Positions 184 through 35,948 of a stretch of 35,948 nt of DNA are shown one piece after another. The stretch spans positions 1 to 35,948 of the IMG/VR virus record IMGVR_UViG_3300045988_029071; one strand, given 5' to 3'. Position numbers and translations under genes: made by a program. How positions within the stretch are numbered: position 1 is the stretch's first letter; each line of letters starts with the position of its first letter. Source of the stretch: a virus. The notes under the pieces were generated by a model that had not been told where the DNA came from, ran no database searches, and saw only the letters and a program-made list of their open reading frames with translations.

Positions 184-213
184 GTTTTTTTCAAAAAAAC
201 TTTATAAAAACGC

Positions 214-242
214 TTGACTTTATACAACTTTAGTTGTGTAAT
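214..242 (+). promoter_or_regulatory. Sigma-70-type promoter with a palindromic operator in its spacer
   Basis: TTGACT (214-219), a 17-nt spacer, then TGTAAT (237-242). The spacer contains the perfect palindrome ACAACT-TT-AGTTGT (224-237). Confidence 0.55.
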
Positions 243-301
243 AGATACATAAGGTTAAGGAGGAAACCTTAGACAAGGAAACTAGTAGAAAGGAAAACAA
301 A

Positions 302-406
302 ATGTTTAAGTTCAAAAAGAAGCCACTCAAAGTCAAAACAAATAAGATAGTCATCAAAATAAACTTATTTATAATCAGCTTTGAATGGCACTTAGAAATT
401 GGATAG
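302..406 (+). CDS. 34-codon mini-ORF a (MFKFKKKPLKVKTNKIVIKINLFIISFEWHLEIG); coding status uncertain
   Basis: ATG at 302 with a weak AAAGGA Shine-Dalgarno sequence. The TAG stop (404-406) lies inside the first hairpin stem. The sequence is AT-rich, so it may be a non-coding leader. Confidence 0.25.
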   Translation: MFKFKKKPLKVKTNKIVIKINLFIISFEWHLEIG

Positions 407-437
407 TGAGAAATCACTATCCGCCCCTTCGGGGGTG
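402..437 (+). other. Two abutting RNA hairpins with GAAA and UUCG tetraloops
   Basis: GATAGTGA-GAAA-TCACTATC (402-421, 8 bp perfect) is followed directly by CGCCCC-TTCG-GGGGTG (422-437, 6 bp including one G-U). No U-tract follows, so this is not a classical terminator. Confidence 0.6.
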
Positions 438-462
438 TACTTAAATTATAACAGGAAAAACA

Positions 463-567
463 ATGAAAGTAAATCTAAAAATTAGAAAAACCACCAAGCG
501 TGAAAAAGTTGAATTTATTATCGGACTTCTTCTACTTCTATTTGCAGTTTGGTATTTTATGAGGTAA
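463..567 (+). CDS. 34-aa basic/hydrophobic membrane peptide (MKVNLKIRKTTKREKVEFIIGLLLLLFAVWYFMR)
   Basis: ATG at 463. The TAA stop lies 3 nt before the next gene's ATG, and the GAGG Shine-Dalgarno sequence for that gene sits in this ORF's last codons. It has one predicted TM segment. Confidence 0.4.
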   Translation: MKVNLKIRKTTKREKVEFIIGLLLLLFAVWYFMR

Positions 568-570
568 TAT

Positions 571-762
571 ATGTCAGTAGATATTAAAGCTATCCGCTGG
601 CTTTTAGACAACGCCACAGCCTATGCTATCAGCAAAAACTGTGGCGTATCAATTCAGGCAGTAGATAAATATAAAAATGGTGTATCGGATATAATGAACA
701 TGCGTTTAAAACACGCAATCAATATGACTGAATACGCCTATAAATTAAAAGACAAACAGTGA
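571..762 (+). CDS. 63-aa mini helix-turn-helix protein (XRE-like)
   Basis: It is in the ORF track. The segment AYAISKNCGVSIQAVDKYKNGVSDI fits the XRE HTH pattern. It is translationally coupled to the upstream peptide and followed by an intrinsic terminator. Confidence 0.6.
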   Translation: MSVDIKAIRWLLDNATAYAISKNCGVSIQAVDKYKNGVSDIMNMRLKHAINMTEYAYKLKDKQ

Positions 763-790
763 TATTTTTTCACTGCTTTTTTATTTTTAA
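757..790 (+). terminator. Rho-independent terminator of the + strand mini-operon
   Basis: The stem CAGTGA/TCACTG (757-762 / 770-775) includes the TGA stop and is followed by CTTTTTTATTTTT. Confidence 0.6.
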
Positions 791-795
791 CAAAC

Positions 796-32371: not shown

Positions 32372-32423
32372 TTATAGTACCTCCTTTCGTTAGAAAATTT
32401 TATAAGAAAATAAGCGTTATTTG

Positions 32424-32452
32424 TTGACTTCTAATAGAAAATAGTCTATTAT
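32424..32452 (+). promoter_or_regulatory. Rightward promoter (repressor/lysogeny operon)
   Basis: TTGACT (32424-32429), a 17-nt spacer, then TATTAT (32447-32452). Operator O2 occupies the spacer. Confidence 0.55.
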
Positions 32453-32557
32453 TAGGGTATAAGAAATACAGCTATATCATAAAAACAGATATAACAAAAA
32501 TCTTGGCGGATTATTTTATTTGTATTTATGTTAGCTGGTCAACTAGCTTACAAAATA

Positions 32558-32586
32558 AGTATAACGGAAAATTTTCTATTTGTCAA
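32558..32586 (-). promoter_or_regulatory. Leftward promoter (cro/early lytic operon)
   Basis: The - strand reads TTGACA (32586-32581), a 17-nt spacer, then TATACT (32563-32558). Operator O3 occupies the spacer. Confidence 0.6.
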
Positions 32587-32646
32587 CAGTTTTGATAGAA
32601 AATTTTACATTATTTTGTAAAGCCTTATTTTTGGAGGTTTTTACAC

Positions 32647-34695: not shown

Positions 34696-35838
34696 ATGTG
34701 GATGGAAGAATTACCAAACGGAAAGTATAAATTTTTTGAACGATATAAAGACCCGTACACTGAAAAATTGAAGAGGGTATCTGTAACGCTTAGTTCTGGT
34801 ACATCACGAGCTAAGAAGGAAGCTCAGAAGCTATTAGACGAACGTATAGAAGAAACTTTACAAAATTTACAATCAACAGATGTGACTTATCAACACGTTT
34901 TAGATGAATGGTGGACATTTTACCAGAAAGAAATCAAAGGTAGTTCTATCAGCTCTCTTACAAGTAGCGTGAATGATTTTAAGGAAGCGTTCGATACAGA
35001 AATTAAAGTTAAGAATATAGACACTAAATATATCCAGAGATTCTTAAATGATCTAGATATTTCTCGTTCAAAACTAGAGCGCTATAAAATGATTTTAAAT
35101 CTATCACTTGATTATGCAGTTAATCTTGAATATATCAAAGACAATCCTGCAAGACGAGCGAAACTTCCAAAACAAATAAAAACAATCGAAGAATTAGAAA
35201 AAACAGAAAAGAAATTTTTAGAAGAGGAAGAATTAAAAAGATTACTAGAGGAATTGTATAGAACAAAGAATACATACAGACTAGGATTGCTTGCTGAATT
35301 CATGGCATACAATGGTTGTCGAATTGGTGAAGCCATTGCCATTAAACAAGAAAATATTGATTTCGATAACAAGACAGTAAAAATCCATGGAACTCTAGAT
35401 AAAACAGTAGGGTATTCAAAAGGATTTAAAACAACTACTAAAACTGCTGCAAGCTTCAGAACTGTTTCTTTATCAAAGAGAGAGATTGAAATTTTAAAAG
35501 AGTTTATCTCAATAAATGAACTTTCTAAAAATACTCGAAAAACATTCAATGATCTTGGATTTATCTTTGTTACCAAAAACGGTATACCAATCCAAAATAA
35601 TTCTTTCAACTTAGCAATCCAGAAAGCAAATAAACGTTTAAAAAATCCAATCGACAAACATCTTACCTCGCATATTTTTAGACATACTCTTGTTAGTAGA
35701 CTAGCAGAAAACAATGTACCTTTAAAAGCAATTATGGCAAGAGTTGGTCACTCCGACTCTCGAACAACTAATAAAATATATACACACGTTACTAAAAAGA
35801 TGGATGATAATATCTTGGACTTGCTTGATTCTTTATAG
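34696..35838 (+). CDS. int: Tyrosine integrase (phage integrase family)
   Basis: 380 aa. The C-terminal catalytic region has RIGEAIAI, HIFRHTLVSRL, GHSDSRTTNKIYTHV (R...HxxR...H...Y). It lies adjacent to the terminal repeat. Confidence 0.92.
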   Translation: MWMEELPNGKYKFFERYKDPYTEKLKRVSVTLSSGTSRAKKEAQKLLDERIEETLQNLQSTDVTYQHVLDEWWTFYQKEIKGSSISSLTSSVNDFKEAFDTEIKVKNIDTKYIQRFLNDLDISRSKLERYKMILNLSLDYAVNLEYIKDNPARRAKLPKQIKTIEELEKTEKKFLEEEELKRLLEELYRTKNTYRLGLLAEFMAYNGCRIGEAIAIKQENIDFDNKTVKIHGTLDKTVGYSKGFKTTTKTAASFRTVSLSKREIEILKEFISINELSKNTRKTFNDLGFIFVTKNGIPIQNNSFNLAIQKANKRLKNPIDKHLTSHIFRHTLVSRLAENNVPLKAIMARVGHSDSRTTNKIYTHVTKKMDDNILDLLDSL

Positions 35839-35859
35839 TTTGCCCCTTATTTGCCCCCT
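35839..35859 (+). repeat. 21-bp TTTGCCCC-TTATTT-GCCCCCT motif, right copy (candidate integrase arm-type site)
   Basis: TTTGCCCCTTATTTGCCCCCT lies immediately after the integrase stop codon, with 20/21 identity to 163-183. Confidence 0.5.
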
Positions 35860-35872
35860 ATTAAACAAAAAA

Positions 35873-35917
35873 AGCCTGTCACACAAGCTAAAATGCTTGA
35901 TATGACGGGCTTTTTAT
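35873..35917 (+). terminator. Integrase terminator (long interrupted hairpin plus U-tract)
   Basis: AGCCTGTCA/TGACGGGCT (9 bp with one G-U) encloses the inner stem CAAGC/GCTTG and is followed by TTTTTAT. The 55-bp terminal repeat begins inside the loop. Confidence 0.65.
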
Positions 35918-35948
35918 AAAATCATTATTTAACGGCTTCTTTAAGAGC
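35894..35948. repeat. Terminal 55-bp exact direct repeat, right copy
   Basis: Identical to 1-55. It starts inside the loop of the integrase terminator hairpin, 56 nt after the integrase stop codon. Confidence 0.9.

Follow-up and report, generated by a model that had tools for sequence, protein, structure and literature searches.

The cassette at positions 200-795 of the viral genome IMGVR_UViG_3300045988_029071 (35,948 nucleotides (nt); this whole stretch is referred to below as the window) is probably a self-repressed accessory operon of the acr-aca type (acr, anti-CRISPR; aca, anti-CRISPR-associated), governed by a repressor of the Aca11 family and equipped with micro-protein cargo and additional controls at the RNA level. 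Three genes, namely two open reading frames (ORF1 and ORF2) for peptides of 34 amino acids (aa) and an aca11-like gene for a 63-aa helix-turn-helix (HTH) protein, lie on the same strand between a single promoter and a terminator, the repressor gene coming last. The features of the module are retained in about 135 related modules of roughly 45 Streptococcus species; the promoter and operator statistics given below refer to 135 unique related modules, and those on ORF intactness to 97 unique modules from viral contigs. An earlier reading of the same DNA, made without database searches (the sequence-only reading), had drawn up a list of features that are all present, at coordinates right to 1-2 nt; a long-range helix at the ORF1 start and a conserved convergent promoter are new here and absent from that list.

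The Aca11-like repressor and its probable operator

The repressor gene (571-762, plus strand) is translationally coupled to ORF2, with a GAGG at 561-564, inside the 3' end of ORF2 and 6 nt ahead of the ATG of the third gene. Searched on its own, the 63-aa protein matches Aca11 (PDB 9lx2) with a phmmer E value of 3.7e-6 over residues 1-59 and with 37% identity, gap-free, in BLASTP, and it matches PHROG 1529, of unknown function, at 1e-18; Pfam, NCBIfam and PADLOC returned only weak and uninformative HTH matches to the single sequence. Its membership emerged only when the family profile (alignment A3) was compared with the PDB sequences, among which it found 9lx2 with an E value of 2.6e-16 over the full length and the N-terminal HTH of AcrIIA15 at about 1e-7. 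With the AlphaFold model of the protein (predicted local distance difference test score, pLDDT, of 92), Foldseek placed the 9lx2 chains at the top (template modelling (TM) score 0.88-0.94, root-mean-square deviation 1.0 A), followed by the DNA-bound N-terminal domain of AcrIIA15 at a TM score of about 0.85, with generic XRE/Cro folds at 0.6 or below. By profile and by predicted fold, the protein belongs to the Aca11 / AcrIIA15 N-terminal domain family.

The operon promoter comprises a -35 hexamer TTGACT (214-219) and, 17 nt after it, a -10 hexamer TGTAAT (237-242), both on the plus strand, with a predicted transcription start near A249. TTGAC(T/A) is found in 110 of the 135 unique modules; the -10 hexamer is TATAAT in 130 of them and the spacer is 17 nt long in 134. 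The window -10 carries a rare G at -11 (position 238), and it is because this hexamer is without an A at -11 that a consensus scanner passed over the promoter. Judging by the relatives, the promoter is genuine and near consensus within the family, the window phage possessing a rare G variant. The same G also disrupts the symmetry of the right operator half-site, and the window phage may have a weakened promoter and a weakened operator.

An inverted repeat of 11-2-11 geometry (219-242) runs across the spacer and the -10 hexamer. It is symmetric at 9 of 11 positions, and its core, ACAACT-TT-AGTTGT (224-237), is a perfect palindrome with a single occurrence in the window. In relatives the extended palindrome ATTATACAACT-TT-AGTTGTATAAT forms a perfect 11-2-11 repeat; this is the commonest operator of the family, and the repeat is perfect in 38 unique relatives. 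Aca11 dimers bind AGTATATAACA-AA-TGTTATATACT, located between TTGACA and TATACT with a 17-nt spacer, and repress the promoter; this inverted repeat has been validated by electrophoretic mobility shift and reporter assays (PMC12658196, PMC12282945). The family operator has the identical geometry and promoter placement, and its half-sites are similar. Four operator types also co-vary with four repressor types across loci: the HTH-1 repressor (the window type) goes with ACAACTTTAGTTGT, the HTH-2 repressor (MIQVLSKEE...) with ACTATTATATATAATAGT, the Aca11 of phage PH15 with TATAACAAATGTTATA, and a ribbon-helix-helix (RHH) protein (Javan252 and L116) with GCTGTAC...GTACAGC around the -35. Module L076 retains the HTH-1 repressor and the type-1 operator with a different first ORF, so that the operator goes with the repressor and not with the cargo. 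In phage PH15, homologues of ORF1, the hairpins and ORF2 are under a promoter that carries the published Aca11 inverted-repeat core itself. Such comparisons suggest that the palindrome is the cognate operator of the 63-aa repressor, which would bind it.

On this part of the cassette the sequence-only reading was largely right. Its promoter TTGACT-17-TGTAAT, with a perfect palindrome as spacer, is confirmed and is kept across the 135 modules; the autoregulated, acr-aca-like layout it proposed is borne out by the Aca11 homology, the operator geometry and the operator-repressor co-variation; and the intrinsic terminator with which it closed the unit was found (757-785, plus strand; a hairpin CAGTGA-N7-TCACTG at 757-775, then a T-run, overlapping the aca stop codon). 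It erred in recognising no named family for the HTH protein.

The closest known system is the acrIIA25.1-aca11 operon from a prophage of Streptococcus sp. F0441, whose Aca11 is the protein of PDB 9lx2 (PMC12282945, PMC12658196). Both systems reside in streptococcal prophages and have, as their last gene, that of a homologous 63-aa HTH repressor (37% identity, TM score about 0.9), as well as a promoter of the TTGAC(A/T)-17-TATAAT type with an 11-2-11 repeat over spacer and -10; the half-sites are alike (TATAACA in Aca11, TACAACT in the window). They differ in operator sequence and in operator copy number, which is one in the window genome; in the cargo, which in the window is two 34-aa micro-proteins and not an Acr protein; and in the conserved structured leader, clamp helix, twin hairpins and convergent promoter that the window module adds. 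The DNA-contact residues differ as well: the window protein keeps Y18 and K22 of Aca11 but has I at position 28 (with Q at 29) and S at position 39, whereas the PH15 protein, 50% identical to Aca11, keeps Y18, K22, Q28 and R39. The loss of Q28 and R39 would be compatible with a different operator sequence. AcrIIA15, a self-repressing HTH fused to an Acr domain (PDB 8jfr, 8jfo), shares the HTH fold (TM score about 0.85, profile about 1e-7) and binds palindromic promoter DNA; in contrast, the window protein is the HTH alone and no Acr domain is encoded in the window operon.

Some relatives do carry an additional domain, as AcrIIA15 does. In PH15 (L005, 2873-3241) and in L099 and L110 (a 128-aa ORF) the Aca-like HTH bears, as a C-terminal fusion, a domain of about 60 aa with the pattern MKHTE.EIL...DIWED.DGN...VDNG.V.FE, and in Javan597 (L003, 1080-1259) this domain is a separate downstream gene. 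The domain of PH15 and L099 had no significant match among the PDB sequences; by analogy with AcrIIA15, it is a candidate Acr-type domain.

The module palindrome was also considered as a CI/Cro operator, and rejected: it has a single copy in the window, and the repeat of the lysogeny switch region (about 32380-32620) is another one, TAGAAAAT. That region has, between divergent repressor genes, four copies of TAGAAAAT(T), recognised by eye; they are probably the CI/Cro operators and unrelated to the module palindrome.

Two micro-proteins and a transcript with a predicted fold

ORF1 (302-406, plus strand) encodes a basic orphan peptide, MFKFKKKPLKVKTNKIVIKINLFIISFEWHLEIG, and ORF2 (463-567, plus strand) a peptide, MKVNLKIRKTTKREKVEFIIGLLLLLFAVWYFMR, whose N-terminus is basic and whose C-terminal part forms a transmembrane helix. 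Intact copies were found in 92 (ORF1) and 94 (ORF2) of the 97 unique viral-contig modules. Between diverged lineages, the ratio of nonsynonymous to synonymous differences per site (pN/pS) is 0.2-0.5 for ORF1, at 0.3-0.8 synonymous differences per site and with conservation extending over the full length, and 0.2-0.7, mostly 0.2-0.5, for ORF2. By these measures both 34-codon ORFs are genuine genes under purifying selection; the sequence-only reading had named mini-ORFs that are not conserved in related phages as grounds for refuting its proposal, and on this count it is not refuted. An 18-residue segment of ORF2 has a Kyte-Doolittle hydropathy of 2.36, which points to a membrane helix; the maximum for ORF1 (1.39, 18-residue window) is too low for one. 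The N-terminus of ORF1 is basic and its C-terminal half shows beta-strand amphipathicity, with which the single confident helix of its single-sequence AlphaFold model clashes; we give that model little weight. When 1.84 billion representative proteins were searched in full with HMMER, only four real relatives of ORF1 emerged, of 34-45 aa, and neither peptide had a match in Pfam, PHROGs, NCBIfam or PADLOC. In the annotation of phages SpSL1 and 23TH only the 63-aa gene is called and the micro-ORFs are missed.

The predicted transcript opens, 1-2 nt from its 5' end, with a stem-loop TAAGGTT/AACCTTA (250-271, plus strand; arms 250-256 and 265-271) that holds AAGGAGG (257-263) in its loop, with no start codon behind it. 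The stem is retained in all aligned relatives, with 100% of cells paired and one compensatory UA-to-AU pair. It is followed by an invariant 18-mer, CCTTAGACAAGGAAACTA (267-284, plus strand), common to modules with unrelated cargo and repressors. Gram-positive mRNAs have known 5' stabilisers, such as the STAB-SD of cryIIIA and the 5'-terminal stem-loops of the aprE and ermC leaders. The window leader resembles these in its terminal stem-loop and in a perfect AAGGAGG far from any start codon; it departs from them in that the Shine-Dalgarno-like sequence sits in a hairpin loop, in the invariant 18-mer, and in being portable among phage modules. By analogy, it is a putative mRNA stabiliser with a decoy Shine-Dalgarno sequence.

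RNAalifold and the single-sequence minimum free energy fold concur on a closed domain, composed of the 5'-terminal stem-loop, a long-range helix (the clamp), an internal helix, hairpin 1 and hairpin 2 (249-480, z = -4.0). The clamp pairs 304-313, that is, the G of the ORF1 ATG and codons 2-4, with GTACTTAAAT at 437-446, directly after hairpin 2, and in the predicted structure it sequesters the ORF1 start. The internal helix, GCCACTCAAAG (322-332) with CTTTGAATGGC (379-389), lies within the ORF1 coding region; 89.5% of its cells are paired, and its arms are also under coding constraint. Over 20 diverged sequences, 95.8% of cells are paired, and the covariation score is 0.149, against 0.070 when shuffled (0 of 500 reach the observed value) and 0.025-0.040 with slid partners. 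The clamp exists in three covarying versions, whose cognate duplexes have energies of -6.8 to -13.8 kcal/mol, compared with -1.6 to -5.7 kcal/mol for cross-version duplexes.

Hairpin 1 (401-422, plus strand) has a stem of 9 base pairs, GGATAGTGA/TCACTATCC, and hairpin 2 (423-436, plus strand) a G/C stem of 5. The ORF1 stop codon (404-406 in the window) falls within hairpin 1 in all lineages, either as TAG in the 5' arm or as TAA in the loop; the latter is the case in L004, L089 and PH15, and ORF1 ends in ...LDSE or ...IGE in these lineages. The stems are conserved, hairpin 2 showing A-U to G-C covariation (G-U in the window), while the loops vary (GAAA, GCAA, GTAA, ACGA or TTT in hairpin 1; UUCG, UUGGU, UAAUA and others in hairpin 2). 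Since the loops vary across lineages, the textbook GAAA and UUCG tetraloops of the window are incidental. The stem sequence of hairpin 1 is invariant while adjacent synonymous sites are heavily diverged and the loop varies; judged from this pattern, constraint on structure only does not account for it. A G+C-rich hairpin equivalent to hairpin 2 follows the first small ORF in non-homologous modules, and ORF2 is without a Shine-Dalgarno sequence in several lineages.

The account of the transcript given by the sequence-only reading stands in part. The leader fold and its orphan AAGGAGG are real, though at coordinates 1-2 nt away from the 252-272 it gave; the twin hairpins are real in their stems and in having no U-tract, but not in the tetraloops it emphasised, which are not conserved. 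The structured-RNA effector that it envisaged found no match to an Rfam family, a trans-activating CRISPR RNA (tracrRNA) or a CRISPR repeat: a scan of 1-1100 against Rfam at E<=10 gave chance-level matches only, with no riboswitch, tracrRNA or CRISPR direct-repeat family. Two other interpretations were rejected. The resemblance of TTTGAATGG to part of a type II-A CRISPR repeat falls in ORF1 codons with synonymous changes in group B. The twin hairpins do not qualify as an intrinsic terminator, as the scanner was silent there, there is no U-tract, and the tail GUACUUAAAU pairs with the ORF1 start region.

A convergent promoter-like site, TTTACT (473-468)-17-TGT-TATAAT (453-445), with an extended -10, occupies 445-473 on the minus strand (TGTTATAAT). 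Its predicted start is near 438, and the antisense RNA would cross the hairpins and ORF1. Nine module architectures have an equivalent extended -10, 17-nt spacer and -35-like hexamer in the interval that separates the G+C-rich hairpin from the following ORF; in four of them (L076, L006, L116 and L036) the intergenic sequence is unrelated. Sites satisfying the full criterion (a -35 match of at least 4/6; the L006 site reaches 3/6 only) occur in this genome at a frequency of 3e-4 per nt per strand. A plus-strand promoter for ORF2 was rejected at this place, the plus-strand hexamers all being without the final T and the minus strand showing TGnTAnnnT in every lineage, as was an internal plus-strand promoter-like site at 348-375 that is not conserved in group B or PH15.

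Proposed mechanism and competing explanations

We propose that a dimer of the Aca11-like protein, the product of the last gene, would bind 219-242 and shut the promoter, as homology and co-variation suggest. Expression would consist of a burst on entry into a naive cell, followed by a low level in the lysogen; by analogy with published Aca function, this is more likely than the lysogen expression favoured by the sequence-only reading. The transcript from about A249 would carry the stabilising stem-loop with its orphan Shine-Dalgarno sequence, then ORF1 and ORF2, and the clamp (304-313/437-446) would lock the ORF1 start region to the segment after the twin hairpins. ORF1 would be translated mainly co-transcriptionally, on nascent transcripts; from the clamp, the stop codon within hairpin 1 and the lack of a Shine-Dalgarno sequence before ORF2 in several lineages, we infer that the ribosomes on ORF1 unfold the domain and allow translation of ORF2 and aca. 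The convergent promoter would supply an antisense RNA over the hairpins and ORF1, an extra layer of silencing. The micro-proteins would be the effectors, most likely acting at the membrane or close to it and serving host manipulation, anti-defence or exclusion, although this role is a guess. They would probably be harmful when over-expressed, and their size, the membrane nature of ORF2 and their presence in pneumococcal phages argue against a role as classical Cas-binding Acr proteins.

Several observations weigh against this proposal. With G at -11 of its -10 hexamer, the promoter of the window phage may be weak. Two residues with which Aca11 contacts DNA, Q28 and R39, are replaced in the window protein. 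The covariation of the clamp stems from few evolutionary events (the group B switch and PH15), and a scanner search for a terminator of the putative antisense RNA found none. Finally, the model leaves the invariant stem of hairpin 1 and the invariant leader 18-mer unexplained.

Many of the same features could be expected of a type I toxin-antitoxin-like module for addiction or abortive infection, in which ORF1, ORF2 or both are toxic, the clamped mRNA is inactive and an antisense RNA is the antitoxin, the Aca-like protein only setting transcription. Toxin mRNAs locked by fold-back, such as those of hok/sok and aapA1/IsoA1, have their start region sequestered by a long-range helix, as is predicted for the ORF1 start codon. 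The peptides are small and basic or hydrophobic, ORF2 being a membrane peptide of less than 60 aa; the first-ORF slot of other modules, e.g. L036, holds transmembrane peptides with a basic tail; and the convergent promoter is kept in nine module architectures. A prophage precedent exists in yonT/yoyJ/SR6 of SPbeta, where two small toxins are reported to be on one mRNA with an antisense RNA between them (PMC5848175); such loci share with the window small basic or hydrophobic peptides on one prophage mRNA and a convergent promoter between the ORFs. We nevertheless find this explanation rather unlikely. Scans of Pfam, NCBIfam and PHROG revealed no homology of ORF1 or ORF2 to any known type I toxin family, ORF1 is not transmembrane (hydropathy 1.39), a strong, consensus-like promoter repressed by a protein would be atypical for a toxin, no antisense terminator was found, and both the antisense transcript and the toxicity are putative.

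Could ORF1 and/or ORF2 be true anti-CRISPRs, the smallest known, directed against type II-A Cas9 or another mitis-group system, like those of canonical acr-aca11 operons? At 34 aa they seem too short, as we know of no Acr of this size; ORF2 is a membrane peptide; and PADLOC, Pfam and PHROGs contain no match. Moreover, the cassette is present in the pneumococcal phage SpSL1 and in an S. pneumoniae genome, a species that, to our knowledge, is without CRISPR-Cas. We therefore hold this explanation to be improbable, despite the exact acr position of the ORFs upstream of an Aca11-family gene, their PH15 counterparts being under the validated Aca11 repeat (PMC12282945), and despite the reported occurrence of Acr islands, including RNA anti-CRISPRs, in mitis-group prophages (bioRxiv 10.64898/2026.06.01.729453).

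ORF1 might instead be a cis-acting leader peptide only, controlling ORF2 and aca by translation attenuation or coupling, with ORF2 or Aca as the sole functional product. The invariable position of its stop within hairpin 1, the clamp connecting its start to the region upstream of ORF2, and the lineages in which ORF2 has no Shine-Dalgarno sequence would all suit such a role. It is difficult to reconcile with the end-to-end conservation of ORF1, with the presence elsewhere of unrelated ORFs, 30-48 aa long, in the slot of ORF1, or with S. porci L232, where the repressor gene comes directly behind the leader with no micro-ORF, and we give it little credence. That the twin hairpins are themselves the effector, as an RNA decoy (a CRISPR-repeat or tracrRNA mimic, Racr or viral single-guide RNA (sgRNA)) or another protein-sequestering RNA, is very improbable, for although the hairpin 1 stem is invariant beyond structural need and RNA anti-CRISPRs occur in streptococcal prophage acr loci (bioRxiv 10.64898/2026.06.01.729453), no tracrRNA or direct-repeat match appeared in Rfam even at E<=10, there is no guide, anti-repeat or terminator architecture and no U-tract, and the TTTGAATGG resemblance lies in synonymously changing ORF1 codons.

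Building on the self-repressed, acr-aca-type operon that we favour, one might speculate more broadly, and only tentatively, that the cassette is a genus-wide phage system not recognised before, in which the micro-proteins, one of them embedded in the membrane, are Aca-controlled effectors of a new class, for anti-defence or host takeover, and so potent as to require three stacked controls (the Aca operator, the fold-back lock of the start codon and the convergent antisense RNA), with the promoter and leader as a portable platform. If true, the locus would be in effect part acr-aca operon and part type I toxin-antitoxin locus, and its promoter and leader an expression platform reused with different repressors and cargo. 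Genes of the aca type serve as beacons for anti-CRISPR and anti-defence genes, and ORFs as small as these are usually ignored and missed by annotation. Here, an operon that ranks among the most widespread Aca11-family operons in Streptococcus, and that is also present in phages of CRISPR-less pneumococci, encodes two 34-residue peptides that are unannotated and under strong purifying selection. This suggests that control of the Aca type may not be confined to anti-CRISPRs and that micro-proteins may be overlooked accessory effectors of phages. The start-codon clamp and the convergent promoter provide testable hypotheses on the control of such operons at the RNA level, complementing the published transcriptional role of Aca.

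Genomic setting, the shared leader and neighbouring elements

The window is a circularly permuted or terminally redundant genome of a temperate Streptococcus phage, probably a mitis-group one, with an exact 55-nt repeat (1-55 = 35894-35948). Owing to this terminal repeat, the integrase gene int (34696-35838, plus strand) reads into 1-200, the region of the phage attachment site attP, and from there into the module. The late genes, among them that of the lysin (1043-1930), are on the minus strand; the module is 3' of int/attP and oriented toward the lysin gene, between the two. The same layout is found in the pneumococcal phage SpSL1, with attP annotated just upstream. SpSL1 is also among the closest relatives of 200-795 (92.7% identity), together with the S. 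infantis phage 23TH (92%) and a prophage of S. infantis OMI802 (93%). Overall, the cassette was found in 46 genome loci (about 45 Streptococcus species), an S. pneumoniae genome among its carriers, and in about 100 viral contigs.

A complete copy of the module, 91.6% identical, is present in S. oralis subsp. tigurinus 859 (L253, LNVH01000002.1), the strain for which the preprint on the viral sgRNA has published RNA-seq (Feussner et al., bioRxiv 10.64898/2026.06.01.729453), which makes the transcript model cheap to check. In this strain, the module copy and the viral sgRNA locus are on different contigs.

The leader 18-mer CCTTAGACAAGGAAACTA and the 5' stem-loop have a broader distribution: they occur in 117 viral contigs and at 56 loci in genomes, of which about 49 belong to Streptococcus or Streptococcaceae. 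The full cassette of ORF1, hairpins and ORF2 is present at 46 of the 56. In Javan252 (L006, 2501-3133) the promoter and leader are in the early region, with unrelated cargo and an RHH repressor. Both L006 and L116 have the operator GCTGTAC...GTACAGC, other small ORFs, a G+C-rich hairpin and the convergent promoter, the RHH protein replacing the HTH. In L232 (S. porci), the HTH-2 gene comes immediately after the promoter, a type-2 operator and the leader, and micro-ORFs are absent; by its gene content, this is a 'solo' autoregulated repressor. Elsewhere, the slot of the first ORF is occupied by unrelated ORFs of 30-48 aa.

Between the module and the lysin gene (795-1043), the minus strand holds a unit of about 135 nt, delimited on one side by the lysin terminator (1012-991) and on the other by another minus-strand terminator (821-802). 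Within it are a promoter-like site, TTGACT-16-TAGTAT (971-944), and a palindrome of 24 nt that is perfect, AATTTTGTTGACGTCAACAAAATT (903-926); no Rfam family matched the unit. Its sequence features make it a candidate small-RNA unit. The stretch 874-999 is about 90% identical to one located just 3' of the amidase gene in pneumococcal phiARI prophages. At the other end of the module, TTTGCCCCTT(T/A)TTTGCCCCCT occurs at 162-183 and at about 35852-35874, flanking the junction from int to the module; the two may represent arm sites of the integrase or repeats that flank att.

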